Source: Candidatus Woesebacteria bacterium (GTDB lineage: Bacteria; Patescibacteriota; Saccharimonadia; Saccharimonadales; EFPC-124). From it: DNA of 64,000 bases. The stretch covers positions 96,616 through 160,615 of the forward strand of contig JASFQB010000001.1 in the NCBI GenBank assembly GCA_050115675.1. Direction: 5' to 3'. A program made the position numbers and the translations under genes. Positions within the stretch are counted from its first letter, which is position 1. Each line of letters starts with the position of its first letter. Positions 7,947 to 60,915 of the stretch are shown here, piece by piece. A model generated the notes under the pieces. The model saw only the letters and a program-made list of their open reading frames with translations. It did no database searches and was not told where the DNA came from.

Positions 7947-8023
7947 TGGAGGGCCATCTGGGGATCGAACCCAGGACACCCTGCTTAAGAGGCAGGTGCT
8001 CTAACCGGCTGAGCTAATGGCCC
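7947..8023 (-). tRNA. tRNA-Lys (anticodon CTT; anticodon at 7987-7989 on the minus strand).
   Basis: The reverse complement folds as GGGCCAT..GCTC AGCCGGTTA GAGC..CCTGC CTCTTAA GCAGG..GGGTTCGATCCCC..ATGGCCCTCCA. Confidence 0.85.
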
Positions 8024-8937: not shown

Positions 8938-11475
8938 CTAATAACTGGTTTGTATCCATTCGCTGCCATTATAAACTTTTACGGGTTTTGTAACCCAAGC
9001 TGATCCGTTCCACACTTTTGCCGGCTTGGCTGTCCAGCTGCCATTGTAGACTTTTGCATTTCCGCCCGTGCCATCGCTTGTAATAAAATCTACAACGTTG
9101 CCAAATGCTACTGCGTCACCTACAGTTACGCCTGTTGTTCCCCACGCTTGCCAATGATAGCTAGCGCGCGCGGTTAAGCCGGTGGTGGCAACTCCCATTA
9201 TTTGATAAATGTAGGGTGATTTATCTGTCCACGCCCAACTTGCGGGGCTATCTGTAAAGTTTAGTTCCTGAGTGTCATTAAACCATGTGCCCGAAACTGG
9301 TCGGCCGCAAGCGACCAAAAAGTAATCTCCTATGACCATGCAGCCTGCGCTGCGTCTTGCAGAAGGAGTGTTGCTTGTTGCTTGCGTGGTCCACGATGTA
9401 AAAGAGCTTGTGCTTGTGTATCTAACGGTATTGTTTACAGCGGAGCCGTCGTATCCCCCAAAGCAAACTAGCCTTTGGTTGGTTGTATCGTAACCTAAAG
9501 TTGCTCCGCGAACAGCAAGACCTCCCGTTACTCCTGTGTCTGTCCAGGAGCAGTTTGCAGTGCTTATGTCTAAATAGAATAGTTGTGAAGTAAAAGTTGT
9601 GCCTCCAGTATTAGTGGCGCCGCCATGAATGTATAATCTGTTATTTGCCGAATCAAAAGCAAAGCAAGACTGCCAGGCGGTAGCCGGAGCTGATCCGGTT
9701 GGAGAAAGCTGGGTCCAAGCTTCTGCACCATCTGTTAAATCTAGCTCCCAAACATCGCCCAAAACTGCAGATTGGCTTTGTCCGCCCCACATAACCATTC
9801 GCTGATTGGTTACATCGTAACACCCATTCGCAAACCATCTTTGAGTTGGTAGGCTGCCACTTGGTGATAATTTTGTAGCATGATACATGCCATGAGAATC
9901 GGCTTTAAGCTCCCAGGTGTCGTTTGTGCGTTGATTTGCTCCGCACAGGCCGCCAAAATATATAGTACGTTGATTTGCAGAGTCGTAAACTGCCAGCCCT
10001 CCTTCGTTTGCCGGTATGCTAAAAGGTCCTTTGGCAGCAAAGCGCCACTTGTTAGCTGTTCGGTCGTATGCCCATATGTCTGAAACGTGTTCGCCACGAC
10101 TTGTTGTGGCGTCGTCGTCCATTGCGCTGTATCCGCTAATTAAAAGCCATTCGCTGCGATCGGAATCGTAAACACAGGTAGGTGCGTCGCGACCTCTAAA
10201 ATAATCAATTACTGTTAAGCCATACATTGGGGCGGTCGCGGAAGTGTCATTCATGTCAAACGCCCAGGTGTATTTGTTATTGCCGTCGTATCCGTATTGC
10301 GTGGCAAAAACAAACATGTTGCGGCTTGTGTCTATGGCAGAGGCGCAACTAGAAAATGCCAAAATTCCTTGGTTGGTTAAGTCGTTGCTTTTTATCTGCG
10401 TCCAAGCTTCTGCGCCAGAGGTTAATGAGAGCTGAATAACGTCATTGCGATTTGTACTGATTGATCCTTGCCAGCCACCAGTCAATAGTGCTCGGCCATT
10501 TATAGGGTCGTAGGCTATATTGAATAATTGTCTGCCTCCTGGTGTTGTGCCACTTGGTGATAATTGAGTAAAGCTGCTGCCACTTATGCTGTATTCCCAG
10601 GCGTCACTTAAGTAGTTGCTTCCATCGTAGCCGCTGGACACAATTAATCTTGCATTTGCTGAGTCATATATCATTCCTGCGCCAGATCGCCTTGAAGGAC
10701 TGCCGGCGGCACCATCCGCTGTTAGTGTGGTCCAAGTAACTGCGGCAGGGGAGTTGACATCAAAAGTGCAACGTTGCAAATCGTTAACCAATGCTGCGCT
10801 TGATCCCCCGAATAAGTAAAGGTCGGTTGTGCTTGATGTGGTATTTATCGGCACCATGGTTTGAGAGATATACGATCGTGTGGCTGGCGTGTTAGTCTGT
10901 GAAACCGTAGACCAGGCTTCGCTGTCTGGAGTGGTGATGTCAAGAGTGTGCATTTCGTTCAGGTTAGATGGAGAAGCGCCGCCCCAAACTATCATGTATG
11001 CTTTATCGACCGATCCAGACGTCGTGCCTCGTACAAATGCCGCACCAGCTAAGTTTTTTGCAGTTGGAGGTGTGCCAGAAGGGCTAAGCTTGCGCCAACG
11101 AGCATACGCGTCATCTGCAGAAAGCGAGTAAACGTCATTAAAACGAGTTACGCCGTTGTAGCCGCCAAAAAGTATAAAACGTTTGTTTTTTGCGTCGTAA
11201 ACTAAATTTGCTCCGCGACGCTGTGTTGGTAGATAAGTTTCTTTTAAAATTCGGGCAACATTGGTAGATGTAGCTGCGTCGCTAAAATTTGTGCCAGTTG
11301 GTCTGACTTCTGTGCTTAGACTTGTCGCAGATGCTGGTGTTGAGCTATAAACGTCAGATTCCAACCAAATATCATTAGAAATGCCATCGCCGGCAGTGTT
11401 TCCACCAGATACTATAGTGGTATATTGATCATCGCGATATTGTCCTCGCGGGACTATGTCTGGATCGCTGGCCAT
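8938..11475 (-). CDS. Kelch-repeat beta-propeller protein. It is the C-terminal receptor-binding-like module of a tail-fibre-like gene and begins directly after the TAG of 11476..11994.
   Basis: Multiple Kelch-type repeats (LVYDAKNKRFILFGGYNG..NDVYSL; repeated W..SPSGT motifs). C-terminal tandem WxxKPxKVxNGSxW repeats. Confidence 0.7.
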   Translation of the reverse strand: MASDPDIVPRGQYRDDQYTTIVSGGNTAGDGISNDIWLESDVYSSTPASATSLSTEVRPTGTNFSDAATSTNVARILKETYLPTQRRGANLVYDAKNKRFILFGGYNGVTRFNDVYSLSADDAYARWRKLSPSGTPPTAKNLAGAAFVRGTTSGSVDKAYMIVWGGASPSNLNEMHTLDITTPDSEAWSTVSQTNTPATRSYISQTMVPINTTSSTTDLYLFGGSSAALVNDLQRCTFDVNSPAAVTWTTLTADGAAGSPSRRSGAGMIYDSANARLIVSSGYDGSNYLSDAWEYSISGSSFTQLSPSGTTPGGRQLFNIAYDPINGRALLTGGWQGSISTNRNDVIQLSLTSGAEAWTQIKSNDLTNQGILAFSSCASAIDTSRNMFVFATQYGYDGNNKYTWAFDMNDTSATAPMYGLTVIDYFRGRDAPTCVYDSDRSEWLLISGYSAMDDDATTSRGEHVSDIWAYDRTANKWRFAAKGPFSIPANEGGLAVYDSANQRTIYFGGLCGANQRTNDTWELKADSHGMYHATKLSPSGSLPTQRWFANGCYDVTNQRMVMWGGQSQSAVLGDVWELDLTDGAEAWTQLSPTGSAPATAWQSCFAFDSANNRLYIHGGATNTGGTTFTSQLFYLDISTANCSWTDTGVTGGLAVRGATLGYDTTNQRLVCFGGYDGSAVNNTVRYTSTSSFTSWTTQATSNTPSARRSAGCMVIGDYFLVACGRPVSGTWFNDTQELNFTDSPASWAWTDKSPYIYQIMGVATTGLTARASYHWQAWGTTGVTVGDAVAFGNVVDFITSDGTGGNAKVYNGSWTAKPAKVWNGSAWVTKPVKVYNGSEWIQTSY

Positions 11476-11994
11476 CTAGTTTGTGCCTATCCACACATCG
11501 CCAGCAGACGGACTGGTAGGTGCGGTGCTGCTAACAGTTATTTTTGCAAAACCTGAGGCTTCTGCAACAGAAAGATTGGTGCGCGCAGTAGGGGCGTCTG
11601 CAACATCGCTTAAATTGCTTGCCGCAGCTAATTTGCCGCTTAAATCAGTAGTTAAATCGGTGATCTTGCTTTGCGAAATTGTGTCTACGTCGCTGTCGCC
11701 AATGTTAAGTGCGGCTAATTTTGATTTGGCTATGGCTGCCGTTGCGCTGATTTCGCTGTTGGCAATAGAAAGACTAAGCTTGCTCTGAGCTATTGCTGCT
11801 GACGTGTTTACTTCGCTATCCGTAATAGAAAGGCTAAGTTTACTTTGCTCAATGCTGGCGGATGATGCAACGGTGTCATTTGTGACCGCTCCAGATTTTA
11901 GGGTTCCACCGCTGGTGTGTGCCTGCAAAAGATAGTCGTTTAGGATTGTTCCCCAAACGCCGTCATCTCCTCCTGATACGGGTAATCTTGCCAT
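11476..11994 (-). CDS. Tail-fibre-like N-terminal module (172 aa), paralogous to the N-terminus of the DGR target at 54787.
   Basis: Shares M.RLP..G.DDGVWG..LND.L and ATAAIAKSKLAALNIGDSDVDTISQSKITDLTTDLSGK with the 54787 protein. Its TAG stop is immediately followed by an in-frame ATG of the Kelch ORF. Confidence 0.7.
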   Translation of the reverse strand: MARLPVSGGDDGVWGTILNDYLLQAHTSGGTLKSGAVTNDTVASSASIEQSKLSLSITDSEVNTSAAIAQSKLSLSIANSEISATAAIAKSKLAALNIGDSDVDTISQSKITDLTTDLSGKLAAASNLSDVADAPTARTNLSVAEASGFAKITVSSTAPTSPSAGDVWIGTN

Positions 11995-12151
11995 TGTCTA
12001 CCTCATTGCGCCTATGCTTTTACTCTATTATAAAGTAAATACTATAGCTACAAAAGCCCAAAATGATATTAGATTGGCTAAATGATTATTGGCATTGTTT
12101 TTGTATTTTGATACGATTTTACATACGGCCAGAGCAACCTAAGGAGTAGAA

Positions 12152-12765: not shown

Positions 12766-13656
12766 ATGACTGACGTAATTATTGGCGTAAAAGGTCTTAT
12801 TAAAGATTTTGGACACAATCGGGCACTAAACAATTTGGATCTAACTGTTCATGCAGGTGAGGTCCATGGTTTTTTGGGTCCAAATGGCGCCGGCAAATCA
12901 ACGACTATTCGTATTTTGTTGGGAATGCTACATAAAAATGCAGGCGAGGTGCAACTTTTGGGTAAAGACCCGTGGCGTGACGCAGTAGAGTTGCATAAAC
13001 ACTTGGCCTACGTGCCGGGAGATGTAAGTCTTTGGCCAAATCTGTCTGGCGGAGAAGCTATCGATTTGCTTGGCAGGCTGCGTGGTGGGCCGGTAACTGC
13101 ACGGCGCCAAGAGTTAATTGATCGTTTTAATCTTGATCCTACTAAAAAATGCGGCACGTACTCTAAGGGTAATCGCCAAAAAGTTGCAATTATTGCAGCA
13201 TTGGCGTCTGATGTAGATTTGTATTTGCTGGATGAGCCTACATCTGGCCTTGATCCCCTAATGCAAGCTGTTTTTAACGAATATGTAACCCAGTTGCGTC
13301 ACGAAGGTAAAACCATCTTATTGTCCAGTCATATATTAGCTGAGGTTGACACGCTCTGTGACGAAGTAACAATTATCAAAGAGGGTAAAGATATTATCTC
13401 TGACAAGCTTTCGTCGTTGCGACACATGACTTACTCTACGGTTACTGTTCAAACAAAAAAACCAATTACAGGTTTAAACAAAATGCCCGATGTTTCTGAT
13501 GTTACGGTGAATGGCGATCATACTACATTTAGGGTAAAAAACGGCGGGCTAAGTGCAGCGCTTACGCATGTTGCCAAATTTGGTATGCATAGTATTTACA
13601 GCGCTCCGCCAACTCTAGAGCAATTATTTATGCGACACTACGAGGAAGCTGAATAA
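12766..13656 (+). CDS. ABC transporter ATP-binding protein.
   Basis: Walker A GPNGAGKST, signature LSGGEA, Walker B LYLLDEPTSGLD. Confidence 0.9.
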   Translation: MTDVIIGVKGLIKDFGHNRALNNLDLTVHAGEVHGFLGPNGAGKSTTIRILLGMLHKNAGEVQLLGKDPWRDAVELHKHLAYVPGDVSLWPNLSGGEAIDLLGRLRGGPVTARRQELIDRFNLDPTKKCGTYSKGNRQKVAIIAALASDVDLYLLDEPTSGLDPLMQAVFNEYVTQLRHEGKTILLSSHILAEVDTLCDEVTIIKEGKDIISDKLSSLRHMTYSTVTVQTKKPITGLNKMPDVSDVTVNGDHTTFRVKNGGLSAALTHVAKFGMHSIYSAPPTLEQLFMRHYEEAE

Positions 13657-15293
13657 TGAGTTTTAAAAATCTGTTTTCCGGAACTTTTAAGCTTTTTAGG
13701 CTTTATTTAAGATGCGATCGCATAAAACTTGCCATATGGATATTCGGTAGTATAGCAATAATGTACGCTTCTGCTTGGAGTGTGGTTGAGCTATACAAAA
13801 CACCCGAACAAATCTATGGCTATGTGTCTGTCGCTGTATCAAACGCAGCTTCTAGGGCGTTTAACGGGCCAATCTTAGGAGCGACTCAGGCCTCTGTTGT
13901 GCTTACCGAAACCTTTTCGTTTTTTACTTTGGTCGTGGCATTTGCCAGTACTCTTTTGGTTGTTCGCCATACTAGACAGGCCGAAGAAAACGGCAGGGCA
14001 GAACTTGTTACTGGTGGAGCGGTGGGTGTTTTTGCACCGTTAACAGCCTCCTTATTGCTGGCACTTTGCTTAAATATTGCACTTGGTGCTACATTTACTT
14101 TTAGTTATGTTGCTTGTGGATTAGGCTGGGGCGGGTCTGTTATGGCGGGGCTTGCCATGGGGATGGTCGGGGTCATTTTTGCAGCAATCGCAGCAATCGC
14201 AGCTCAAATTACGCAAACTTCTAGGGCTGCCAATGCCATTGCTGGTGGTGCAATAGGATTCTTCTTTCTAGTTCGAGCGGTAGGTGATGTTTTAGGTAAA
14301 GTTGAACCAAACGGAGTAGAGGTCAAAAGCTCTTGGTTGACTTTTTTGTCGCCAATGGGGTTGGCTCGCGAAACCCAGCCATTGGTTCGCGATAATATTT
14401 GGCCGGTTTACGTATTGTTGGCCCTTGCATTTTTACTGGTTATTATTGCATTTATAATATTAAAAAATCGCGATTTGGGCTCGGGGATTGTGCCCGTGCG
14501 GCGTGGTCCGCCAGAGGCATCTTCTTTGCTTTCAAACGTTTTTGGTCTAGCTTGGCGTCAGCAGTGTGGTTTAATAGTTGGATGGTCTGTTTGTATAGTT
14601 TTAATGGCAGCGATAGTCGGTGGTATGGCAGACGAAGCAGGCAAGTTTTCTTCTTCGAACCAAACAATGAACGATCTTATTACGCTATTGGGCGGAAGCG
14701 AGAATATCGTAAAAGCCTATCTAACATTTTGTATGTTGCTGATGGGCGTAATGGTTGCCGCATATACCATACAAGCGATGCAAAAAACCAGAGCCGAAGA
14801 AGTAGGCGGTAGGCTAGAGCAAATACTTGCTTGTCGCGTTAGTCGCATGTCTTGGCTACTAAGCCATGTTTTATTGGTGGCACTAGGAGGAACGCTGCTG
14901 CTTGTTTTAAGTGGTGTAGCGACGGGTTTGACCTACGGAATTGTAATTAATGATATTTGGAATCAAACATCTTCGTTGCTGGTTGCAGGTCTAGCGCAGT
15001 TGCCCGCAGTTTTAATATTTTTGGGATTCTCTGCGCTTAGCTTTGCTGTATTGCCAAAAATTTCTATAATGCTAGACTGGCTATTTTTTGCAGCATGCTA
15101 TGTAGTAATACAATTTGGTGAAGTATTTAAATTGGACCAGTGGGTTTTGGACTTGTCTCCATTTACGCACGTGCCAGCAATGCCCTCGCAAGATATTGCC
15201 TGGTGGCCAGTAGTTAGTATGACGATGATAGCTGTAGTTGGTATAATCGCCTCGCTCGTATTGTTTAGACGGCGTAATTTGACAACTGTATGA
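13656..15293 (+). CDS. ABC-2 type transporter permease.
   Basis: Start overlaps the upstream ATPase stop (ATGA). Polytopic membrane protein of about 12 TM helices. Confidence 0.75.
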   Translation: MSFKNLFSGTFKLFRLYLRCDRIKLAIWIFGSIAIMYASAWSVVELYKTPEQIYGYVSVAVSNAASRAFNGPILGATQASVVLTETFSFFTLVVAFASTLLVVRHTRQAEENGRAELVTGGAVGVFAPLTASLLLALCLNIALGATFTFSYVACGLGWGGSVMAGLAMGMVGVIFAAIAAIAAQITQTSRAANAIAGGAIGFFFLVRAVGDVLGKVEPNGVEVKSSWLTFLSPMGLARETQPLVRDNIWPVYVLLALAFLLVIIAFIILKNRDLGSGIVPVRRGPPEASSLLSNVFGLAWRQQCGLIVGWSVCIVLMAAIVGGMADEAGKFSSSNQTMNDLITLLGGSENIVKAYLTFCMLLMGVMVAAYTIQAMQKTRAEEVGGRLEQILACRVSRMSWLLSHVLLVALGGTLLLVLSGVATGLTYGIVINDIWNQTSSLLVAGLAQLPAVLIFLGFSALSFAVLPKISIMLDWLFFAACYVVIQFGEVFKLDQWVLDLSPFTHVPAMPSQDIAWWPVVSMTMIAVVGIIASLVLFRRRNLTTV

Positions 15294-19222: not shown

Positions 19223-19981
19223 TTGCCTATTTTGGAGGTTATTGTGCATTGGCGAGAATCGAGGATAACAAATCCGCGAGGCAGGGAAGTACTAAATAAT
19301 AATCCCGAGCTGGCTGGTGCTGTTGAGCGTTTTTTGTCTAGTCCAAAGCCAGAGGAGGCTATTGGTGGACAGTCACTAGGCTCAGGTACGTATTCTTCTG
19401 CTCGGCGTTTTGGCAATTTTTTGGTTAAAGTGTCTTCTGCTACCACTAATAAAAAGGCCCATCGCAAAAGCCAAGCTGGTTCTGAAGATTTGTTTAGGCA
19501 GTTTAAATTTTTGTCTGAACTTTACGACTATTTGCAAATTAAATCAATTACAACAATTGTAACCCCGCGGCAGTATTTTGCGTACAGGTCTCGTTGCGGA
19601 GCTTATCTGCTTTGTCAGCAGTATATGGACGGCTGGATTACGCTTAAAGAATGGGCCGAGTCTAGATATAGTCCAAATGTTGAGGAAGATGTGACTTTTG
19701 TTTCAGGCTACTGTGAGTATGTTCGATGGCGCGTGATGGATTTTGCTCAAAATGCTGGTTTTGAACGAGATTTAAACGATCTAAAGCTAAAAGATGGCAA
19801 ACTGCACGCCAGAAACATTCTGGTGCCTCAAGGCTGTGATTCTAGCCCAAGCATGCCTCTTTGTATCATTGATCAGCCCTGTACTTCGGCAAGGGCACCA
19901 AGAATCTGGGTGGACATGTTGACATGGTTTATGGGTTGTGCTAACCTTAATTTTGTGCCTAACAAGGGGCATCAGACCTGA
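19223..19981 (+). CDS. Hypothetical protein.
   Basis: ORF only. Confidence 0.35.
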   Translation: MPILEVIVHWRESRITNPRGREVLNNNPELAGAVERFLSSPKPEEAIGGQSLGSGTYSSARRFGNFLVKVSSATTNKKAHRKSQAGSEDLFRQFKFLSELYDYLQIKSITTIVTPRQYFAYRSRCGAYLLCQQYMDGWITLKEWAESRYSPNVEEDVTFVSGYCEYVRWRVMDFAQNAGFERDLNDLKLKDGKLHARNILVPQGCDSSPSMPLCIIDQPCTSARAPRIWVDMLTWFMGCANLNFVPNKGHQT

Positions 19982-33329: not shown

Positions 33330-34838
33330 ATGACACCTATATCACCTTGGCCTAAATTTTACGAAGACCCGAATCGTTTGATTCAGGACTTGAACAAAGT
33401 GCCTGAACAAACTTGGCGCGAGCGAGCAGAGCAATCTGCCCTCGCGCTTTTTTGTTCTGCGTCCAGTAGAGTTCCGGCCTATAAAAAATTTTTAAAAACC
33501 AATGGCGTTGACCCTAAAAAAGTCAAAACAATAGCAGATTTTGCCAAGCTGCCGCACATTACTAAAGAAAACTATTTGCGCCAGTATCCATTGGCCGAAT
33601 TGGCATGGGATGGCAAGATCGGCAGCGCAAGTATGGTAAATCGCAGTTCTGGCTCTAGTGGTCAGCCGTTTTATTGGCCAAGCGATCAAAGTCAGCGCAA
33701 CGAAGTTGGCGCGGCTTATGACATTGTTTTTAGCCAAATGTTTGGCATGCGTCAGTTAAAAACCTTGGTTATTATTGCTTATGGCATGGGAAGTTGGGTT
33801 GCTGGCACGACCACGCTTTTGTCATCTATAGAATATATGAACAAATATGACTGCATGTTTATCACTCCTGGTTACAATAAAAACGAGGTGATAGAAATTT
33901 GCAAAAACCTTGGTCCAAATTTTGATCAGGTGGTTATTTGCGCATACCCACCTTTAATAAAAGAAATAATTGATGCAGGTGAGGACGTGGGCATTGACTG
34001 GCCAAAGTTAAGTCCAAAGTTTATCTTTGGCGCAGAGGCTTTTGGCGAGGAATTTAGAGATTATATTTTAGAGCAAGTGGGGTCGAATAATCCGTTTTTG
34101 GACACTATGAATACAATTGGCTCGGCCGATGCCATGATTATTGGTCACGAAACTCCAATTTCTATTGCTTTGCGCAGAATGATTCATGCTAGTCCAAAGT
34201 TTCATGACCAGGTCTTGGGTAGCGGGCGCATGCCAACTTTGGCTCAGTACTATCCTTGGCAAAAATATTTACAGGTTGAGGATAGCGAGCTTTTAATAAC
34301 CAGCAATGGCGCAATACCTTTGATAAGATACAATATTCATGATAATGCAAAAGTGTTTACCTATGGTGAGCTGGACGAAATCGCCAAAACATATGGTCAC
34401 GAAGGAATTGTCGAGGCTTTGCCTGCAAATTTGCGCTATAGATACAATTGGCAGCTGCCTTTTGTGTTGCTTTACGGAAAAAGCACAAACGCACTGAAGT
34501 TTTATGGGGCCATTGTATATCCCGAAAACGTAAAAGCTGCACTAGAAAAACCGGCTTGGGCGCATTACTTTACGGGTAAGTTTAAGATGGAAAAATACTA
34601 TGACGCTAGGCAAAGTCAGCGTTTACGCTTGCATTTAGAACTGTCTCCTGGGGCTGTGACAGATGAGGTTGATATAAAATCATTGCAAAAAAACATTGTA
34701 GAAACGCTGTGCGAGATGAACAGCGAGTATAGGTCATCTTATCGCGACACGGGGAGTAAGGCGATTCCGGCAGTTAAGCTAATCAATTATGGTCAATTCG
34801 AGCTTAACAACAACAATAATAAGCATAGGTATGTGTAA
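33330..34838 (+). CDS. Adenylate-forming enzyme of the phenylacetate-CoA ligase / CapK / F390-synthetase family.
   Basis: P-loop-like SSGSSGQPF (like SSGTTGKP of PaaK), about 500 aa with a two-subdomain layout. Confidence 0.6.
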   Translation: MTPISPWPKFYEDPNRLIQDLNKVPEQTWRERAEQSALALFCSASSRVPAYKKFLKTNGVDPKKVKTIADFAKLPHITKENYLRQYPLAELAWDGKIGSASMVNRSSGSSGQPFYWPSDQSQRNEVGAAYDIVFSQMFGMRQLKTLVIIAYGMGSWVAGTTTLLSSIEYMNKYDCMFITPGYNKNEVIEICKNLGPNFDQVVICAYPPLIKEIIDAGEDVGIDWPKLSPKFIFGAEAFGEEFRDYILEQVGSNNPFLDTMNTIGSADAMIIGHETPISIALRRMIHASPKFHDQVLGSGRMPTLAQYYPWQKYLQVEDSELLITSNGAIPLIRYNIHDNAKVFTYGELDEIAKTYGHEGIVEALPANLRYRYNWQLPFVLLYGKSTNALKFYGAIVYPENVKAALEKPAWAHYFTGKFKMEKYYDARQSQRLRLHLELSPGAVTDEVDIKSLQKNIVETLCEMNSEYRSSYRDTGSKAIPAVKLINYGQFELNNNNNKHRYV

Positions 34839-35995
34839 TGTTAAAAACTTCTTTAGTGCCATTTTGGCAGTCACCTAAAATATTGTCTGTAAAAACAGAA
34901 GATGATTTTGCCGAGGTACAAAAACTTTACGATAGTGGTCAAGTGAGGCAGTTTTTTGACTCGGCAGAGCTTGCTATAAACGAACTTTACGACATTTCTT
35001 ACCCAGAGCAAAAAGATCTTCCAAAAAGCCAAAAAACAAATTACGACAATTTTGCAAAAAAATATTTATGGCCAAAAGGTGACTTTGTATTTTATCAGCA
35101 CAATGGATTGCTGGTAAGATTTTTAGGTTGTGAAGAACTTAGGGCGCTGCGCACTTCGCGTAATCGTAATTTAATTACAAGGCAAGAGCAAGATAAGCTT
35201 TACAGATCAAAAATTTTTGTTGCAGGTATGAGTGTGGGTAGTAATATTGTAGAATCGCTAGTAACGAGCGGTGTTGGTGGGTGTCTGGCTCTGGCGGATA
35301 TGGATATAATAGAACCTAGCAATTTAAATAGAATCCGTGTGCCATATTGGCACGTTGGAATGCATAAATGCGACTCTGTCGCAATTAGAATGAACGAAAT
35401 TGATCCGTACTTGCATTTTGATTTGCATAAAAAGGGCATAGACATGCAAAATATCAGGCAAATCATAGAAGAATCCAAGCCAGACATAATTGTTGACGAA
35501 GTAGACCAAATCCAAGTTAAAATTGCTTTGCGTCGTTTAGCAAAACAAAAAAGGATTGCTGTTGTTTCTGCGGCAGATGACGGTGACGATGCGTTGCTTG
35601 ATATCGAGCGTTACGACACCGATGCTGATTTGCCAATTTTTAATGGCTTGGTTCCAGAAGATGTTGTAAGAGGGCTCGAGGATGCAAACGACATGCCGCG
35701 GCAACAACTTGGTTTGTTGATTGGTAAATATTTTGTTGGCTCAAAAAACATACCATTGCGCATGTTTGAGTCGTTGGGTGAGGTTGGCAAAACGTTACCA
35801 AGTTGGCCGCAGCTGGGGAGTGCCGCAACTCAATCTGGCCTAGCGGTCGCATACGCGTGCAGAAAGATTTTATTAAATCAGCCAATTAAAGCAGGCAGAT
35901 CTGTAATAGGTTGCGACGCGGCTCTTTTCAGTGATAAAAGCGATTCAAAAAAACTAAAGATCTACCAAGATCAGTTGGATAAGTTTAAATTCTAG
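34838..35995 (+). CDS. ThiF/MoeB/E1-like adenylyltransferase-fold protein with an N-terminal extension of about 130 aa.
   Basis: Rossmann IFVAGMSVGSNIVESLVTSGVGGCLALADMDIIEPSNLNRI. Overlapping stop/start (TAATG) with the upstream gene. Confidence 0.6.
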   Translation: MLKTSLVPFWQSPKILSVKTEDDFAEVQKLYDSGQVRQFFDSAELAINELYDISYPEQKDLPKSQKTNYDNFAKKYLWPKGDFVFYQHNGLLVRFLGCEELRALRTSRNRNLITRQEQDKLYRSKIFVAGMSVGSNIVESLVTSGVGGCLALADMDIIEPSNLNRIRVPYWHVGMHKCDSVAIRMNEIDPYLHFDLHKKGIDMQNIRQIIEESKPDIIVDEVDQIQVKIALRRLAKQKRIAVVSAADDGDDALLDIERYDTDADLPIFNGLVPEDVVRGLEDANDMPRQQLGLLIGKYFVGSKNIPLRMFESLGEVGKTLPSWPQLGSAATQSGLAVAYACRKILLNQPIKAGRSVIGCDAALFSDKSDSKKLKIYQDQLDKFKF

Positions 35996-39525: not shown

Positions 39526-40296
39526 TTATCGCATCTTGTCCCTAAACTTGGCAATCTCGTTTGGTGACAGTTTTGAAAGCCTTTGCCAGACTTCTTCTGG
39601 GCAGTCTTTCCATAGCTCCCTTTGCTTATCAAGATACTCGTCATGTCCACATGTGGGTGGCCAAAACTTAATGTCGAGCCATTCGGTCAAACTTTCGCTT
39701 GATGGAGCTGGAGCAATGTAGCAGTGCACCTTGTCTAAAAGTGCTATTATGGCATAGGCTACGTTGATTGGCGCTTTGTGTCTAATTCGTAGATCTTCTG
39801 TCAGAGTAGCGCTTAGCCGCATTTCTGCTGCGCATGAGTTTGCAAGCCTAAACTCCATTCCTGACCCAATTGACCTACCAGGCGTAGGCATAAAGTGAGG
39901 TAAGTCTCGCCAGTATTCTCCTCTAAAAAGCCGTGGAGCGTAGTCGTCATAGATATAGTCGGGTTCATCCGTGCCGTAGTGGCTTTTGATGTATGTACGT
40001 CGTGGTAGAAGGCTTGACGACAGCTTGGCGCTTAAGCCAAGCTCCCAATTTGACATTACATGACCCGCTGTATAGTGTTTACCCTCGTTCAAAATGGCAT
40101 ACACAACTCCACAGGCTTGCGGCACTTCAAAAATCAACATGGTACTGCGATATGTGAATGTGCATGGTTCGTACACTCTGCCCAGGTGTGTAAAACGCAG
40201 TCCGGTGCGCGAAGTAATTTGATTAACTACGTCTTGGATGTAAGCTGGCGTTGCCAGGTGTTTCATCCAGCGGTTTGGATTGCTTTGGCGTGCCAT
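39526..40296 (-). CDS. Hypothetical protein.
   Basis: ORF. Start uncertain (40296 or 40338). Confidence 0.4.
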   Translation of the reverse strand: MARQSNPNRWMKHLATPAYIQDVVNQITSRTGLRFTHLGRVYEPCTFTYRSTMLIFEVPQACGVVYAILNEGKHYTAGHVMSNWELGLSAKLSSSLLPRRTYIKSHYGTDEPDYIYDDYAPRLFRGEYWRDLPHFMPTPGRSIGSGMEFRLANSCAAEMRLSATLTEDLRIRHKAPINVAYAIIALLDKVHCYIAPAPSSESLTEWLDIKFWPPTCGHDEYLDKQRELWKDCPEEVWQRLSKLSPNEIAKFRDKMR

Positions 40297-40438
40297 GTGC
40301 CTCTCCTGTCTGCTGTCAGAAAGAACGAGTAACCTCATAATTATAGCACTTCTAGTGGCTTAGGCTCTAGACATTATATCTATTAGTGATATAATGTCTA
40401 GTTGTCTGTTAGTGCACATACAAGAAAGAGGTATTGAT

Positions 40439-51624: not shown

Positions 51625-51700
51625 GGCCCCTTCGTCTAGTGGTTAGGACATCAGGTTTTCATCCTGAAGATCGCGGGTTCGAGTCCCGCAGGGGTCACCA
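51625..51700 (+). tRNA. tRNA-Glu (anticodon TTC at 51658-51660).
   Basis: Acceptor GGCCCCT/AGGGGTC, anticodon stem tcagg/cctga with loop ttttcat, T-arm GCGGGTTCGAGTCCCGC, encoded CCA. Confidence 0.85.
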
Positions 51701-53249
51701 TAAGAGAATTTTTTGCTTCCAGTAATTGGAAGACCGGCGACACCCCTGTAAAAAGGGGTGTTTTTTGATTTCGACCAACCAAATCTGCATAGGTTGGTAA
51801 TGTACGGAAAATCAGGCCGAAAAACTGGGCTTTTTTGACCGGGTCAATCTGTTTTACGACCAGTTCATCCAAGTTTTCGACGAAATATTTTACGCGGGCA
51901 ATTACCCGGTCTATACTCATTGGCTTCTTAGCTTCCATCTTCATCCTTTCGAGTGACAGCTGCTTAATTTGTTTATCTACGTCCTCTAGCTCTTCATTTA
52001 GGTGCTGCTGAGCCGAAGGGGCGATTGTAGCGAAGTTTTTGGCCATGCTGCGAGCCTGCTGCGTAAGGTCATTGATCTTACTGTCGATTACGGCGATTTG
52101 CGCATCATGATATGCCACACGCTTTTCATAAGCATCTTTAATGGCAACGAACAGCGTGTCGATGTCTTGCTGCGAAAATTCCAAACCGCCAACAAATTCT
52201 AGCACGCGCATTTCGAGCTCTTCTTTTTTAACGCGGAACTTATGTTCGCGCTTGTCGCAGTGGTAATACGAATAGTAATTGCCGGTTTTGCCGCGAGAGG
52301 CACTGCCAAGCAGTGGCTTGTTGCATTCCGGGCACATTACAAAATTCTTGAATGCAAAGTCCGAGTGGCGCGTGCCTTTTGGCGTGGCATTTTCCGGCGC
52401 TACATTATCCGTAATCGCAATCTTGTTGTTGGGCATTTCTATAATTACTCGCTTGCCCTTGTTGGCGCGGTTGAATAGGTCGATTGAAACAATCCCATCA
52501 AACATACATTTAACCGGCTGGCCTTGTGTCCATTTCTCGACATTTATGCCTGCATAGATTGGATTGCGTACCATTTTCCAGAGCTTCTTTTCGTCCAGCA
52601 GGGCTGGCTCGGTTCGCCTAACAATGCGCGACCTGTCGTCTTTTGCGCGGCGTAGCTGCGGCCGTCCGCGATAACCCATATCGTTCAACTTCTTGGCAAT
52701 CTCGCGGTCGCTAAATTGGCCGCTGGCACGAAGTTCAAATAGCGCAACAATGTATTTAGCTTCCTGCGGGTGCGGCTTTAATACCATACGCTTGCCGTGT
52801 TGTGTTTCTACTTTTTCGCTCACTAGGCCATACGGTGCGCGCCGCATCCAATAGCCCATTTGCGTGTAGCGGATTTCGGCACCAATGACGCGGCTCAAAA
52901 TATCTCGCACTTCGTCTTTTGACCGTTCGGCTTCCAGCATTTCCGATTTGCGGCTTGGTGAGTATTTGCTCCATTTGTATTCCTGCCCGAGGTGCGCCAG
53001 TGTGTTGACCTGCTCGTGGCTAATGACGCCATAGGTATCAACGAGCGTCACGCGGCATTCTTCTTTGCTGGCCGATTCCAAGAACACAAAGAACTTTTTG
53101 ATGGTGATTCCCCGGTTATCGGCGTAGCGTTCGATCTGCTCTTTTTGCGCTTCCGGCGAGTCGCCGTCGGTGCCTTGCTTGGTGGTCGAAACACGAATCG
53201 CGGCAACTGCATACTTACTATTTTGTGGCTGCATTTTCTCCCTCCTCAA
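51651..53249 (-). CDS. Large serine recombinase (phage-integrase type).
   Basis: N-terminal resolvase catalytic domain (AVAAIRVSTTKQ), recombinase domain, zinc ribbon (CPECNKPL...YYHCDKREHK) and a coiled-coil. The last ~16 codons overlap the 3' half of tRNA-Glu. Confidence 0.85.
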   Translation of the reverse strand: MRREKMQPQNSKYAVAAIRVSTTKQGTDGDSPEAQKEQIERYADNRGITIKKFFVFLESASKEECRVTLVDTYGVISHEQVNTLAHLGQEYKWSKYSPSRKSEMLEAERSKDEVRDILSRVIGAEIRYTQMGYWMRRAPYGLVSEKVETQHGKRMVLKPHPQEAKYIVALFELRASGQFSDREIAKKLNDMGYRGRPQLRRAKDDRSRIVRRTEPALLDEKKLWKMVRNPIYAGINVEKWTQGQPVKCMFDGIVSIDLFNRANKGKRVIIEMPNNKIAITDNVAPENATPKGTRHSDFAFKNFVMCPECNKPLLGSASRGKTGNYYSYYHCDKREHKFRVKKEELEMRVLEFVGGLEFSQQDIDTLFVAIKDAYEKRVAYHDAQIAVIDSKINDLTQQARSMAKNFATIAPSAQQHLNEELEDVDKQIKQLSLERMKMEAKKPMSIDRVIARVKYFVENLDELVVKQIDPVKKAQFFGLIFRTLPTYADLVGRNQKTPLFTGVSPVFQLLEAKNSLMVTPAGLEPAIFRMKT

Positions 53250-53383
53250 AGATCATGTCCAGTAGTATGTCGGCCAGAATTTCCAGCTTTTCACCATCTC
53301 CAAGACCGACAATCTCAGGTAATTCTGGCTGATTATTTTGTGACCCTCTTGCTGTGCTCATAGAAGTAAACTAGCTTTTATAG

Positions 53384-53399
53384 TTATAGTATACTATAA
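53384..53399. repeat. Perfect 16-bp palindrome TTATAGTATACTATAA in the AT-rich gap.
   Basis: Read directly from the sequence. Lies between the recombinase and the Replic_Relax gene. Confidence 0.6.
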
Positions 53400-53737
53400 C
53401 AAATAGAGATAGTTAAAGCGTTTTAGGGCACTATTTACACCCTTGCGGGCTAGGGTGTAAATGCAACTATTTCTAATCTGTTAGCGCTTGTTTTTCCGTG
53501 TTACCTATCTTATAAATATATGGGTAGGTGGGGTTGGTTGGAATTGTATGTGCCCATTATACCTGCATACTTAAAACTATACCAAGAACAAAAGCTAAGA
53601 CAGAGAAAATAAAGAACCTAAAGAAGAAAACTAATAACCATGCTTAAAGAACAACTAACTCTGAACCTACCTACTAATACCTATCTAAGAATACGCATAC
53701 TAACAAACTGACGAATAAACGTAAATGTAATCCGTAC

Positions 53738-54667
53738 ATGACGAAATTACCAAAACTAACCAGAAAACAAGGCGAAATACTAGAACTGCTCTACAGGTTC
53801 AGATTCCTAAACCGCATCCAGATACAAGCACTACTACTGCACAAAGACCCGAAAACCATTAACCTGTGGTTGCGTGATCTGCGCTCCAAAGGCTACGTCG
53901 AATGGATATACTCAACCCACTTCGCCGAGAAGACCAAACCAGCTGTCTACTACCTCGGACTAAACGGTGTACGATATCTGCGTACGCTTACTAGGGAGGA
54001 AGAAGTAACGGGCGACGATCCAGAGACCGACGAGGGCGGCGACCCTAAGCCTACACCAGCCTACCCGCCAGAAGAACTGCGCAAACGCTACAAAGAGCCA
54101 ACCCGCAGTCAAACCTATATTGACCGCTGCATCCTGATAGCAGACTGCGTACTTGCTCTAGACCAAGCGAGCTTTGACAACCGGATGCAAGGCAAAAGGC
54201 TCAGCTATTACATTCAGACAGAAGCAGACTACTTGCTTGAACGCAGCTACTACCATTTTGTACTGGATATTGACGACGAACTAATCCACCCGCACCTTTT
54301 GTTTTGCCAGGACAAAACAAACAAAGACGGCGAGGAAATAACCCTAGAAAGCTATATCCTGGAAGTATTTGATCCAACCCTGCCGCGCTACCGTATGAAA
54401 AAGCGCCTTGGTGATTACGTGAAGTTCCTGGATGACGAGGGTGACACGTGGAAAGAGCAGACGGATACCGACAAGCTGCCAGTTATCCTATTTGTCTACC
54501 CCCGAACAACTGACCTCATTTATGCGAAACGAAGAACACGAAAACTCGTTGCCGACGCGTGGTATTGGGAGGATGACGACACCGAAAGGCCACGGGTGCG
54601 GTTTACGACGATGGAGAAGTTGAAACAAAGCGGCTTGTTAGCGAAGGAGATTTGGGAGCAAGCCTGA
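53738..54667 (+). CDS. Replication-relaxation (Replic_Relax) family protein.
   Basis: N-terminal wHTH LTRKQGEILELLYRFRFLNRIQIQALL...LRDLRSKGYVE typical of PF13814. Confidence 0.55.
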   Translation: MTKLPKLTRKQGEILELLYRFRFLNRIQIQALLLHKDPKTINLWLRDLRSKGYVEWIYSTHFAEKTKPAVYYLGLNGVRYLRTLTREEEVTGDDPETDEGGDPKPTPAYPPEELRKRYKEPTRSQTYIDRCILIADCVLALDQASFDNRMQGKRLSYYIQTEADYLLERSYYHFVLDIDDELIHPHLLFCQDKTNKDGEEITLESYILEVFDPTLPRYRMKKRLGDYVKFLDDEGDTWKEQTDTDKLPVILFVYPRTTDLIYAKRRTRKLVADAWYWEDDDTERPRVRFTTMEKLKQSGLLAKEIWEQA

Positions 54668-54786
54668 CTGTCCGCCTCCGCGTCTTTTATCTGGCCGAGA
54701 GCTATTGTAACTACCCCCCCATCCTGTACAATAGAAACCATAAGCGTAGAATAGATATGAGTGTACGAAGGTAATAGAAAAACGGT

Positions 54787-56316
54787 ATGTCACGGCTTCC
54801 GCAACCTGGTGCAGATGATGGTGTTTGGGGTGATGTCCTCAACGACTTTTTAGGCGTATCCCACAATAGTGACGGTACGCTTAAAAGCAGTGCCCTGTCT
54901 TCCAAGGCAAATGACACAGCCACCGTACACAACACAGGCAATGAGTCCATAGCCGGAGTAAAGACCTTCACCTCCAGCCCTGTAGTTCCTACCCCCACAA
55001 CCAACACCCAAGCAGCTAACAAACAGTACGTAGACAATACAGTATCTGCCGGTGCGCCAGACGCCACTACGTCCGCACCAGGCCTAATACAACTAGCCGG
55101 TGACCTAGGCGGCAGCGGCACCATAGCAACTGCCCCTGTCATATCCGACAGCGCAGTAACAACCAGCAAGATAACCAACGGCGCCGTCACCACAGCCAAG
55201 CTGGCTACTGGCAGCGTAACTACCAACGAGATAGCCGACGGCACCATAACAGACACCGACATTAGTGCCACGGCCGCCATAGCCAAAACCAAACTGGCAA
55301 GCCTAAACATCACAGATAGTGATGTAAGCGCTATATCCGAAAGCAAAGTTACCAACCTGACAACCGACCTAGCAGGCAAAGAACCAACGATCACTGCCGG
55401 CACCACTGCTCAGTACTACCGTGGCGACAAATCGTGGCAAACCCTGGATAAAACAGCCGTAGACCTAGCCAATGTAGACAATACCAGCGATGCAAACAAA
55501 CCAGTTTCTACCGCCACCCAAACAGCCTTAGACGCCAAGCTGGACTACGCCACCGCCCCCACCGGCTACATTCGCGTGCCCGGCAACCCCAAGTTCGGTA
55601 CCACTGACTTCTATGTCATGAAGCACGAAGCCAAGAACGTCGGCGGCGTACCTACCTCCCAGGCAGCCAGTACGCCATGGGGCAGTATCTCCCAGGCCAG
55701 TGCCATAGACGCAGCTAGAAGCCTTGGCCCGGGCTACCACCTGATAACCGAGGCCGAATGGATGACCATTGCTTACAACGCCCTGTACGTAGGCAGCAAC
55801 TGGACCGGCGGCAGTGTTGGCTCAGGAGCGCTCTTCTCCGGCCATAACGACAACAACCCGGGCAACGCGCTTGACGCTGATACCAACGACGCCAACGGCT
55901 ACTACGGTACTGGCAACGTGAGCCCCAGCAACCAGCGCCGGACATTAACCCTCAGCAACGGAGAGGTCATCTGGGATCTAGCCGGTAACGTCTGGGAATG
56001 GACTGATGCCCAGATCATTGGCAGCGACCAGCCGACTGTTGCCAGCCCCGGTTTTGCCTGGCGCGAGTTTACCGCCATTACCAAGTGGGGAGCGCTGAAC
56101 TATGCCCTGCCTACGGGCAGAGGCTGGAACTCCAGCCAAGGCCTCGGCCAGATCTATTCCGACGGCACCAGCACCAATACGACGCTGTACGGCTTCATCC
56201 GCGGCGGCGGCTGGGGCCAAGGCAGCGACGCGGGCGCGTTTTCGCTCTACTTGAACCACACGCCGTCGTTCACGCACGCGGCCGTCGGGTTCCGGGTTGC
56301 CAGGAGTATTCTGTAA
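54787..56316 (+). CDS. DGR target protein: tail-fibre-like N-terminus with a C-terminal FGE-sulfatase / C-type-lectin-fold domain carrying the variable region.
   Basis: N-terminus paralogous to 11476..11994. C-terminus GYHLITEAEW..NVWEWT..RGGGWGQGSDAGAF..GFRVARSIL is an FGE/CLec fold. The last 118 bp match the TR with adenine-specific differences. Confidence 0.8.
   Translation: MSRLPQPGADDGVWGDVLNDFLGVSHNSDGTLKSSALSSKANDTATVHNTGNESIAGVKTFTSSPVVPTPTTNTQAANKQYVDNTVSAGAPDATTSAPGLIQLAGDLGGSGTIATAPVISDSAVTTSKITNGAVTTAKLATGSVTTNEIADGTITDTDISATAAIAKTKLASLNITDSDVSAISESKVTNLTTDLAGKEPTITAGTTAQYYRGDKSWQTLDKTAVDLANVDNTSDANKPVSTATQTALDAKLDYATAPTGYIRVPGNPKFGTTDFYVMKHEAKNVGGVPTSQAASTPWGSISQASAIDAARSLGPGYHLITEAEWMTIAYNALYVGSNWTGGSVGSGALFSGHNDNNPGNALDADTNDANGYYGTGNVSPSNQRRTLTLSNGEVIWDLAGNVWEWTDAQIIGSDQPTVASPGFAWREFTAITKWGALNYALPTGRGWNSSQGLGQIYSDGTSTNTTLYGFIRGGGWGQGSDAGAFSLYLNHTPSFTHAAVGFRVARSIL
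56189..56306 (+). repeat. DGR variable region (VR).
   Basis: 118-bp alignment to 57463..57580 shows 19 mismatches, of which 16 fall at TR adenines. Confidence 0.8.
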
Positions 56317-56345
56317 TCTATGCCGCGAATAAGGGGAAGAGTATC

Positions 56346-57360
56346 ATGACGAAACAAATGTCTGAGAGCATGCATCTTCAGCGCGCGGAGCGCGCATCCT
56401 CGTTGTTCGACCAAGTTGCCAGCTTTGAAAACCTCTACGCCGCGTACCAGGCGGCGGCCCGCGGCAAGCACGACCGGGTCGCTACGCTACGCCACGATTT
56501 GCATGCCGAAAAGATTTTGTGGCGGTTACGCTGGGAGCTACTGAATGGCCGGTACCGCCACGGCAAGTACCGGCGGTTTACGATTGTCGAGCCCAAGGCG
56601 AGGGATGTTAGCGCCGCACCGTTTACCGACCGCATCGTTCACCATGCGGTTGTCCAAGTGGTAGAACCGCTATTTGAGCGCGGCTTTATATATGACAGCT
56701 ATGCTTGCCGCCGCAGGAAAGGCACGCACCAGGCGGCTTTGCGGTTGCAGCATTTTCTGCGCTCTGCATCAACATCTATTGGTCATACAGGACGGTTGTA
56801 TGTGCTTCGTGCCGATATCCGGAAGTTTTTTGCCCGTATTGACCACGACGTGCTCAAGGATATATTGCGCCGCAAGCTCCCCGATGCCCGATTGCGGGAG
56901 CTATTGGGCCTGATTATTGATTCATTCTCCGAGATTGTGCCGCAAACGCCGCAGGCGGAATCCTCTCTCTCGATCTGAACGCGGCTTGCCGATAGACAAC
57001 CTTACCTCGCAGCTTCTTGCTAACTTGTACCTCAACGAGCTCGACCAGTTCGCAAAGCATACATTGCGATCACGCTATTACATACGGTATATGGATGATT
57101 TTATTATCCTGCACCCGGACAAAAGGTATCTTCGAGAGGTGTTGGCATCTTTACACCAGTATGTTAACCAAAATTTGCGGCTTGAGTTACATTTCAAGAA
57201 GACCAATATTCATCCATTTTGTGACTACGAGCGTTTTGTGGGTTACGAACTAGGCTTGTATCACCGGCGGCTGGCCAGGCCGACAGTACAGCGTTTTCGG
57301 CGGCGGTATAAGAGGCTGCAACTCCGCGACCCCGCTGCCGCCGATGACAGTTTGGCTTAG
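56346..57360 (+). CDS. DGR reverse transcriptase. Its frame is broken near 56961-56978 (frame 0 -> frame +1) at a (TC)4 tract.
   Basis: RT motifs EPKARDVSAAPFTDRIVHHA, DGR-specific LPIDNLTSQ (I/LGxxxSQ), YMDDFIIL. RBS aagggga upstream. The first part ends at TGA 56976-78 and the RT continues in the 56917..57360 frame. Confidence 0.8.
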
Positions 57361-57462
57361 TTTACCGCTTACGCCCATTTTGCCCATGCCGATGGATTAC
57401 TGCGGACGTTTCGGACCAGAGAGGGCCGACCATAGATATGCACAAGAAAGAGATAAATAACC

Positions 57463-57580
57463 ACGGTTTCATCCGCGGCGGCAACTGGAACAACGGCAGC
57501 AACGCGGGTGCGTTTACGCTCAACTTGAACAACACGCCGTCGAACACGAACACGAACATCGGGTTCCGGGTTGCCAGGAG
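57463..57580 (+). repeat. DGR template repeat (TR), AAC-codon-rich.
   Basis: TR reads ...aac tgg aac aac ggc agc aac..aac ttg aac aac..aac acg aac acg aac atc ggg ttc cgg gtt gcc agg ag. VR differs almost only where TR has A. Confidence 0.8.
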
Positions 57581-57780
57581 CTTGGCTCCAAGGCCTGTAA
57601 GGGCCGGCAGGGGTGCTACCTTGGTTACGGCCGGTAGCAGCGTGCTTTCAAAGATCTCCCGTTTGCCTCTGTCCTGGCCGGTGCGTTTATGCTGCGGCCG
57701 AATACGAACGGGCCAGCCGTGGCGGTATTATGCCGATTCTGTTGGCCCGGCCCTTCGGGGTACGGTGCGGGCTGGGTGTC

Positions 57781-58122
57781 ATGGATGACCTGATCGTATT
57801 CCGCAAGATGTACGAATACCTATCCTGGTTACGGCCCAGCGTTGAACGCTTCGCGCGGATGCACCGTTACGGTCTAGGGAACGAGATGGAGCAGTCAGCG
57901 CTGACGGTACTTCGTCACATAGTTAGTGCGAACTTTGCTGCGGACAAGCTGCCTGCCATCGGGCGGGCTTTAGTGGAACTTGAGGTCTTGCGGATATATC
58001 AGCGCCTTACTTATGATTACAAGTTGCTTAGTGGCCGCCAGTTTACTCATGCGAGTGCGCTGCTTGATGAAATAGGGCGGCTACTGCGGGGTTGGCATAA
58101 AAGCTATCGCGGTCCTCGCTAG
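57781..58122 (+). CDS. avd: Accessory variability determinant (Avd), a four-helix-bundle protein.
   Basis: 114 aa. Pattern MDDLIVFRKMYEYLSWLRPSVERFAR...LVELEVLRIY...ALLDEIGRLLRGW closely mirrors Bordetella phage bAvd (LIVERYERVISYLYPIAQSIPRKHG...AEVGRILGSW). Confidence 0.75.
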   Translation: MDDLIVFRKMYEYLSWLRPSVERFARMHRYGLGNEMEQSALTVLRHIVSANFAADKLPAIGRALVELEVLRIYQRLTYDYKLLSGRQFTHASALLDEIGRLLRGWHKSYRGPR

Positions 58123-58180
58123 AGGTGTCGCCCGGGCGGCTCATGCGCATATATTGGTAATAGGGTATAATAATTCTGAT

Positions 58181-60396: not shown

Positions 60397-60410
60397 GCAT
60401 CACGCCCAAG

Positions 60411-60545: not shown

Positions 60546-60644
60546 CTATCTCTGTTATTTTGAGTTCGATTCTCTTTTGGTACCATTAGTCGGCATCATG
60601 AAAAATTATTGACATAAATACTTCGTGTATATACAATTGTAGAT

Positions 60645-60908: not shown

Positions 60909-60915
60909 GCTAGTC

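Follow-up and report, generated by a model that had tools for sequence, protein, structure and literature searches.

The 64,000-nt stretch of DNA analysed here, referred to as the window (contig JASFQB010000001.1, deposited as a Candidatus Woesebacteria bacterium), contains two abutting open reading frames (ORFs) on its reverse strand, one encoding a protein of 172 aa (11476..11994, -) and the other a Kelch protein of 845 aa (8938..11475, -). The two genes probably form an operon that encodes a phage-type fibre made of two subunits, which are joined after translation; the 172-aa protein is hereafter called the shaft and the Kelch protein the tip, after the roles proposed for them. That they are made as two separate proteins, and not as a fusion, is close to certain.

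The shaft ORF ends with a TAG stop codon at 11476-11478, and the ATG at 11473-11475, directly next to it, opens the tip ORF in the same frame. As read from the sequence, this junction (11473..11478, -) is ...GGCACAAAC TAG ATG GCC... and, at the protein level, ...GDVWIGTN*MASDPDIV..., just as described in an earlier reading of this DNA (the original prediction). A Shine-Dalgarno (SD)-like GAGG (12001..12004, -) is located 6 nt 5' of the ATG of the shaft gene, and no SD-like motif was found 5' of the tip ATG. Such motifs precede only 11 of 37 starts in the window, which makes the absence of one before the tip gene weak evidence. Tight or overlapping stop/start pairs are common in the window (for instance, 12766..13656/13656..15293 and 33330..34838/34838..35995). 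Both genes are under strong purifying selection, with dN/dS values relative to their homologues of 0.08-0.09 for the shaft and 0.05 for the tip. A promoter and terminator scan was uninformative, as counts were at or below shuffle expectation, and a tandem repeat finder run on the locus detected nothing relevant at the DNA level.

The junction was then compared across the 14 loci in which the Kelch gene is of the stand-alone form (the window, L001-L006, L008, L016, L019, L022-L024 and L082). In all 14 of these Saccharimonadales loci both genes are present and separate. The upstream gene invariably starts with MARLPxxGxDxGxWGxxLNDFL and ends with ...NLSDVxxxxARTNLxVPxAxGFAxITVxTTAPSSPxxGDxWxDTN, with its stop codon right after GDxWxDTN. 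The distance between stop and start, on the other hand, varies: 0 nt (TAG-ATG) in the window, L006 and L023; 1 nt in L001, L004, L008, L022 and L024; 3 nt in L082; 4 nt in L019; 7 nt in L016; -1 nt, as a TAATG overlap, in L002 and L003; and 23 nt in L005, where the start is GTG and an SD-like GGCGGTGAT is present. The closest relative, whose Kelch protein is 87% identical and which shares the neighbouring genes for an ABC transporter, a TM2 protein and a CHASE kinase, has the out-of-frame junction TAA-a-ATG. The stop codon at this site is TAA or TAG in the relatives, and TGA also occurs in phages. In more distant loci, a gene of 269 or 633 aa is found between the tail-bearing gene and a longer Kelch gene.

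The TAG is thus the shaft gene's genuine and ancient stop codon; that the ATG shares its frame is a matter of chance at so tight a junction. The original prediction had allowed for either two proteins or a 1018-aa fusion produced by read-through. The former alternative was borne out, while a read-through fusion is not a conserved product, because relatives consistently carry the two ORFs as separate genes, which is the finding that had been set beforehand as speaking against a fusion, and do so in a variable frame relation. It follows that an in-frame stop-ATG junction should not be counted as a read-through candidate before relatives have been checked.

Three parts make up the shaft: an anchor domain at the N-terminus, a stalk of helical repeats and a tail motif at the C-terminus. 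The N-terminal domain (residues 1-37; 11884..11994, -; MARLPxxGxDxGxWGxxLNDYL...G.L) is common to the target protein of a diversity-generating retroelement (DGR) located elsewhere in the window and to a large fibre-like family; in the alignment, its invariant columns are M1, R3, L4, P5, G8, D10, W14, G15, L18, N19, L22 and G30. The stalk (residues 38-126; 11617..11883, -) is variable in length and is made of repeats of ~20 aa (AAIAxSKLxLSIxxSEV) that are predicted to form long helices. The tail, AKITVSSTAPTSPSAGDVWIGTN-COOH (residues 150-172; 11479..11547, -), corresponds to the first half of a unit that is split between the two proteins, as detailed below. In an AlphaFold2 (AF2) monomer model of the shaft, with a predicted local distance difference test score (pLDDT) of 80.5, an N-terminal helix is followed by stalk helices at residues 39-96 and 100-126 (pLDDT above 90) and by a C-terminal beta hairpin with strands at 152-155 and 167-170.

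A protein search with the shaft retrieved ~90 relatives. The orthologues that were aligned or read range from 94 to 217 aa, and those of related loci reach 468 aa; all of them terminate in GD[VIL]W[IV]DTN. The shortest (94 aa) comprise only the N-terminal domain and the C-terminal ~50 residues, so that it is the stalk that varies in length, and the window shaft itself has one 20-aa repeat more than its closest relatives in the alignment. Orthologues of 378-468 aa carry long fibre repeats of the DUF5907 type. The window tail reads WIGTN, with G170 (codon 11485-11487, -) in place of the D found in all 21 other aligned orthologues and in all the tail copies read from phages and viral contigs. Either this nearly invariant position truly varies in the window, or the sequence contains an error here.

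The tail-fibre-like character assigned to the locus in the original prediction was upheld. A profile of the shaft family matches the solved short tail fibre gp92 (9zd7, E 1e-6) through its NLSDxxxxARTNL repeats, and the shaft gives weak matches to tail-fibre families in PHROGs. In the viral contigs checked, proteins with the N-terminal domain are encoded within tail-gene clusters, in one case directly after the tape-measure gene, and in two viral loci such a protein is found beside head, tail and tape-measure genes. The predicted modularity of the N-terminal module was also supported, as this domain heads many Saccharimonadales proteins with differing C-terminal parts, including a beta-helix, a GDSL lipase and the DGR lectin. 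A third protein with a MARLP N-terminal domain, P0168 (PVI21_03820; 121 aa, N-terminus 69% identical), is encoded on another contig of the same metagenome-assembled genome; it lacks the tail as well as any recognisable head, and could be a fragment.

In line with the paralogy that had been proposed, residues 1-41 of the shaft share 59% identity with the DGR target (E 3e-13), and residues 34-121 align at 45% identity with target residues 110-198 (E 1e-16), a segment that includes the ATAAIAKxKLAxLNIxDSDV..IS.SK.T.LTTDL.GK block. The related idea that a Kelch head has replaced the FGE/CLec head at a junction within a single polypeptide was not supported. The 172-aa protein has an invariant C-terminal tail of its own, which is absent from the DGR target; no homologue has the N-terminal module fused to Kelch, and the longer Kelch homologues bear a different, lectin-like N-terminal domain.

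In the tip (8938..11475, -; TAG end), a beta domain at the N-terminus is followed by two Kelch propellers, another beta domain towards the C-terminus and a triple repeat. The protein was matched by Pfam families PF24681 (E 4e-60, 203 bits vs. a cut-off of 50) and PF24981 (E 2e-34), and its AF2 model has a pLDDT of 90.4 and a predicted TM-score (pTM) of 0.89. Dozens of stand-alone Kelch homologues have 844-851 aa, and the 38 stand-alone orthologues start with MASDPD..PRGQYRNDQ, Met1 being invariant. At the extreme C-terminus (residues 806-845; 8941..9060, -), three 13-residue repeats were identified as regular-expression matches, AKVYNGSWTAKP / AKVWNGSAWVTKP / VKVYNGSEWIQTSY, which make up the second half of the split unit in three copies. 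Long Kelch forms of 1046-1620 aa also exist (P0035, P0036, P0044, P0057 and P0065; loci L007 and L010-L013). They carry one or two additional lectin-like N-terminal domains (FSDNFNDNSLDxxKW...), yet another domain at the N-terminus, and/or a C-terminal extension of ~220 aa after the triple repeat, which is then internal.

The tail and the repeats also occur together in phages. A scan of viral contigs for GD[VIL]W[IV]DTN, within the ~25-aa tail KITVGTTAPSSPxxGDxWxDTN-COOH, yielded 31 loci, and in all 31 the stop codon directly follows the motif, in ORFs that range from fewer than 100 to about 1400 aa. Among cultured phages, no match was obtained with tblastn at E 0.01 for a 60-aa tail segment, and a second query at E 10 recovered Rhodobacter and Sinorhizobium phages; the tail is terminal in RcMcDreamy gp12, RcZahn gp39 and phiM12_096. 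The proteins encoded downstream have mutually unrelated bodies, yet almost always one of them ends in 13-residue K[VI]WNGSxWVxKP repeats, up to three in number. Examples of such repeat-ended proteins have 209, 245, 280, 283 and 428 aa in viral contigs, 82 aa in RcMcDreamy (gp14) and 244 aa in phiM12 (phiM12_094), where the genes 096 and 094 are linked by a TAATG overlap.

Overall, 44 of 56 tail-bearing loci have a downstream ORF on the same strand with a run of 2-3 KVWNGSxW repeats; under a relaxed reading three more show degenerate runs, and five of the 56 are on truncated contigs. The run never exceeds three repeats, across unrelated protein bodies. No ORF with a repeat run was found in the control, which comprised 209 kb from 23 viral loci that lack the tail. 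The tail-bearing gene lies upstream of the repeat-bearing gene in all 21 Saccharimonadales loci and in the viral loci. With regard to genomic context, RcZahn gp39-41 come just after a distal tail protein and a gene transfer agent (GTA) TIM-barrel protein, and the RcMcDreamy gp12-14 set lies among replication genes.

A family of ~270 aa (MAITTLDG...SLWRATGQPxQGAIP...; ~277 aa in some loci) is encoded between the tail-bearing and the repeat-bearing genes in several loci (L013, 3014-3823; L079, 5092-5928, which is RcMcDreamy gp13; L080, 5121-5951; L035, L043, L049, L065 and L075), and occurs in Rhodobacter phages, viral contigs and some Saccharimonadales genomes. This protein may be a third subunit of the joint. 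Searches of PHROGs and Pfam with the ~277-aa, 633-aa and repeat proteins returned nothing or families of unknown function, and a repeat protein had no real match among PDB sequences. In the annotated phage records examined, all copies are labelled hypothetical, and the matching PHROGs are families of unknown function. No description of the tail/repeat pair was found in Pfam, PHROGs, the PDB sequence search or a full-text literature search for the motif strings, and the split motif appears to be undescribed in these resources. Literature on Saccharibacteria DGRs or fibres and on the phiM12 proteome yielded nothing directly usable, and the papers on the RcGTA head spike made no link to these genes.

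Further evidence came from proteins that carry both halves side by side. Searching 1.84 billion representative proteins with a tail profile gave 1970 matches; among these, many short proteins end exactly at the tail, and large proteins carry internal, tandem copies. P0210 (900 aa) has five contiguous units (..TVGTSAPSSPQVKDQWLDTNYSPxLFKxWNGSAWV..), in each of which the tail half, six residues and the repeat half follow one another in a single chain. Related contiguous units are present in P0208 (899 aa; 14 units), P0213 and P0236. Tail halves alone are repeated in P0242 (94 aa; three, the protein ending at the third) and P0286 (60 aa; two). A hidden Markov model (HMM) built from the five P0210 units was searched against the 436 window ORFs of at least 50 aa. 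Its best match was to the last 20 residues of the 172-aa ORF (HMM positions 4-23, E 3e-5) and its second best to the C-terminus of the Kelch protein (HMM positions 29-39, at residues 820-829 and 832-842, E 0.01). This amounts to "Rosetta stone" (fusion-type) evidence for a fit between tail and repeats: they are contiguous in other proteins, and one model finds both. The P0210 unit weakly matches Pfam DUF2510 (E 8e-4, below the cut-off) and the P0236 unit weakly matches DUF2793 (30.8 bits vs. a cut-off of 27); neither of these families, which are of the GxWxD…W.G..W type and of unknown function, is matched by the window's own proteins.

On the basis of these observations, we propose the following model. 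The 172-aa protein would be the shaft, with a phage-tail-type N-terminal anchor, a variable helical stalk and the invariant tail ...KITVxTTAPSSPxxGDxWxDTN-COOH, and the Kelch double propeller would be an exchangeable, monomeric tip. Its gene might be translated by coupling or re-initiation at the abutting ATG, a suggestion with a weak basis given how few starts in the window have an SD-like motif. After synthesis, the shaft tail, as strands A-B of a beta unit of ~40 residues, would pair with the C-terminal KVWNGSAWV repeats of the tip as strands C-D, rebuilding across two chains a unit that is continuous in other proteins. The shaft is probably a trimer, in which case three tails could complete three half-units on one Kelch chain. 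The DGR target would represent a sister design, with its head fused rather than docked. In Saccharimonadales, the assembly would most likely serve to attach the cell to another cell or to a surface, the Kelch propellers doing the binding. We regard docking of the tail onto the triple repeat, as judged from sequence, as an even call.

Several points weigh against this model. The trimeric state of the shaft is assumed by analogy with fibres, whereas the AF2 model is of a monomer; G170 could weaken docking or be a sequence error; no signal peptide was found in either protein; no baseplate-like partner for the N-terminal domain was seen in the window; and low-level read-through of any stop codon would be compatible with the sequence data. 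In some loci, the ~277-aa or the 633-aa protein is encoded between the tail-bearing and the repeat-bearing genes, so that a third subunit, absent from the window, may take part in the joint. It is also conceivable that tail and repeats each bind a common third partner and not one another. According to this last explanation, which we consider unlikely, the proteins would be separate and co-expressed, and both halves would bind a cell-wall or capsule polymer, a particle or the ~277-aa protein. Besides the intervening genes, the weak matches of the contiguous units to DUF2510 and DUF2793 favour it, as does the retention of the repeats in the long Kelch forms, where they are not C-terminal. However, the contiguity of both halves within one ~40-residue unit in P0210 and related proteins fits complementation better, and the limit of three repeats over unrelated bodies, together with the strict gene order and tight linkage, also argues for a direct joint. 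A role of the 172-aa protein as an assembly chaperone or adaptor for Kelch folding, rather than as a structural shaft, would suit a small protein encoded beside a larger one and tightly coupled to it, but is very unlikely: orthologues of 378-468 aa have long fibre repeats, tail-bearing phage proteins reach about 1400 aa, the N-terminal domain is common to large fibre-like proteins including the DGR target, and known tail-fibre chaperones are usually encoded downstream of the fibre gene.

The remaining alternatives concern the junction. Programmed read-through of the TAG, or another form of recoding, would yield a 1018-aa shaft-Kelch fusion beside the 172-aa product, as in recoding-extended phage proteins. 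The two ORFs being in the same frame without a spacer speaks for it, and three relatives are in frame too (L006 and L023 with a gap of 0 nt, L082 with 3 nt). Nevertheless, it is highly improbable. The four in-frame junctions out of 14 represent the chance level (binomial test against 1/3, p = 1.0), the junction of the closest relative is not in frame, and in phage loci the frame relation is spread roughly evenly over all three frames. TAG is an ordinary stop codon, terminating 14 of the 43 long ORFs of the window, the Kelch ORF among them, and no tRNA with a CUA (suppressor) anticodon is encoded in the 64-kb window, whose three tRNAs are Arg, Lys and Glu. An artificially fused 1018-aa query retrieved 111 homologues, none of which spans the junction or has the N-terminal module fused to Kelch, and no conserved recoding signal was detected at the junction among the relatives and phage loci compared. 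The invariant start Met of the 38 tip orthologues also argues against read-through, and a fusion would leave the halves of the split motif apart, since the repeats sit at the far C-terminus of the Kelch protein. We give next to no credence to the TAG being a recent nonsense mutation or an assembly error that splits a continuous gene, which would make the locus a pseudogene or an artefact. The source is a metagenome-assembled genome and the unusual D170G change lies two codons before the stop, yet a stop is present at exactly the same position in every orthologue, in the examined loci of viral contigs and cultured phages, and in many short protein-search matches; both ORFs are intact and under purifying selection, and no fused homologue exists among those retrieved. 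Separately, genome-wide reassignment of TAG was considered and rejected, given its frequency as a stop codon.

With regard to known systems, the proposed two-subunit fibre recalls the long tail fibre of phage T4, in which the adjacent gene products gp34-gp35-gp36-gp37 form a multi-protein fibre end to end. As in T4-type fibres, separate shaft and tip proteins are encoded by adjacent co-oriented genes, a monomeric piece could join a trimeric one, and the tip would be exchangeable. Unlike them, the joint proposed here has no sequence relation to the T4 joints and would consist of a split beta unit of ~40 residues, with one tail per shaft chain against three second halves on the tip; furthermore, the operon stands alone in a Saccharimonadales chromosome, with no other phage structural genes among the ORFs tested. 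The closest actual relatives are unannotated gene sets of Rhodobacter and Sinorhizobium phages: RcMcDreamy gp12-gp13-gp14, RcZahn gp39-gp40-gp41 and SmphiM12_096/094 of phiM12. Their first protein has the same tail (…HVGTTAPSSPAVGDLWVDTN*), a downstream protein ends in a triple KVWxGSAWVxKP, and the junctions are equally tight, TAATG overlap included. In contrast, the bodies differ and none is Kelch, the Rhodobacter sets have the ~277-aa protein in between, and none of the tail-bearing proteins has a MARLP-type N-terminus.

DGR variable proteins with a C-type-lectin/FGE fold, such as that of the Mtd type of Bordetella phage and the one encoded here at 54787-56316, are alike in that the latter shares its N-terminal domain and stalk block with the shaft and is probably mounted at the same site; they differ in being a single chain with the head fused on and a variable region (VR) present, and lack the GDxWxDTN tail and the triple repeat. 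Recoding is known to extend phage structural proteins, as in the -1 frameshift of lambda G/GT and the read-through of Q-beta A1. The likeness to these is superficial and limited to abutting ORFs in a structural-protein locus, as here neither the frame relation nor a recoding signal is conserved. The best fold matches of the tip in the PDB were the Kelch domains of LZTR1 and KLHDC2. These and the Kelch domains of KLHDC3 and KLHDC10 share the six-bladed propeller fold (TM-score about 0.8 over one propeller), but identity is 16-19% and the window protein has two propellers and extra beta domains, and the likeness is generic to propellers. KLHDC2 binds C-terminal peptides, and binding of the shaft tail by the Kelch propeller in this manner was considered as a lead and set aside, as non-Kelch proteins pair with the same tail.

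Beyond this locus, a short and nearly invariant tail and its matching triple repeat connect the shaft genes of many phages and Saccharimonadales genomes with their tip genes. We tentatively suggest, at somewhat less than even confidence and from sequence comparison, that the tail and the triple KVWNGSAWVxKP repeat constitute an undescribed and widely used plug-and-socket joint, in which three tails per tip would solve the 3:1 mismatch between shaft and tip, tips could be swapped without in-frame recombination, and the cellular fibre might sit on a structure whose genes lie elsewhere. Tip proteins, among them Kelch propellers and small domains, could in that case be exchanged on a common shaft by phages of unrelated hosts and by Saccharimonadales cells, and the cellular copies would perhaps be mounted in a way similar to the products of dispersed GTA fibre genes. 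Should docking hold, it would provide a simple sequence-based rule to match fibre shafts in metagenomes with their tip (receptor-binding) proteins, and a natural scaffold for swapping binding domains. These results also point to surface proteins that these episymbiotic bacteria may use for attachment, in which a single shaft family has a head that is either a DGR-diversified lectin or a detachable Kelch protein.

The DGR target (509 aa; 54787..56316, +) is encoded outside the Kelch operon. Besides the N-terminal domain and stalk block, it has an FGE/CLec-type C-terminal domain that holds the VR, and it matches many tail-fibre PHROGs, DUF5907 and BppL_N. The VR (56189-56306) and the template repeat (TR; 57463-57580) differ at 19 positions, 16 of them at TR adenines, and the bAvd gene is located at 57613-58122. 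The only match of the TR in the window is at 56189-56306, with none within 8.9-12 kb, and the Kelch operon is therefore not a DGR target. The island (51651-62000) comprises a serine recombinase (51651-53249), a Replic_Relax protein (53738-54667), the target with its VR, the TR, bAvd and an rve integrase (59104-59946), as well as two pairs of direct repeats 885 nt apart (60405-60539 and 61290-61424). Of the window ORFs tested, none was recognised as a phage head or tail gene, and a prophage check of the ORFs at 37-63 kb revealed no head or tail PHROGs. The nearness of the Kelch operon to a tRNA-Lys gene, to which the original prediction had drawn attention, was confirmed (tRNA-Lys(CTT), 7947-8023), but it appears to be irrelevant; the 87%-identical relative keeps the same chromosomal neighbours.

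Several gene starts in the window (e.g., 39526..40338, -, and 19223..19981, +) have a TATAAT-like sequence directly before the start codon. Together with the SD-like motif being present in only 11 of 37 large ORFs, this suggests that leaderless mRNAs are frequent in the window. With regard to the source, the NCBI label is Candidatus Woesebacteria (P0001 / P0112; PVI21_00660/00665), while those close homologues and syntenic loci that carry a name are labelled Saccharibacteria/Saccharimonadales, and the NCBI label may be wrong. Finally, L082 is located on a contig of 957,675 bp (JARAUW010000001.1) in an assembly labelled Streptomyces caniscabiei (GCA_033792395.1), with a GC content of 51% at the locus. 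It has the shaft and Kelch operon (P0061, 64% identical), and the Kelch start is probably mis-called, as MAGDPD is found 3 nt after the shaft stop. The contig resembles a Saccharibacteria genome that came along in the assembly of a Streptomyces culture, a hint of a host association.

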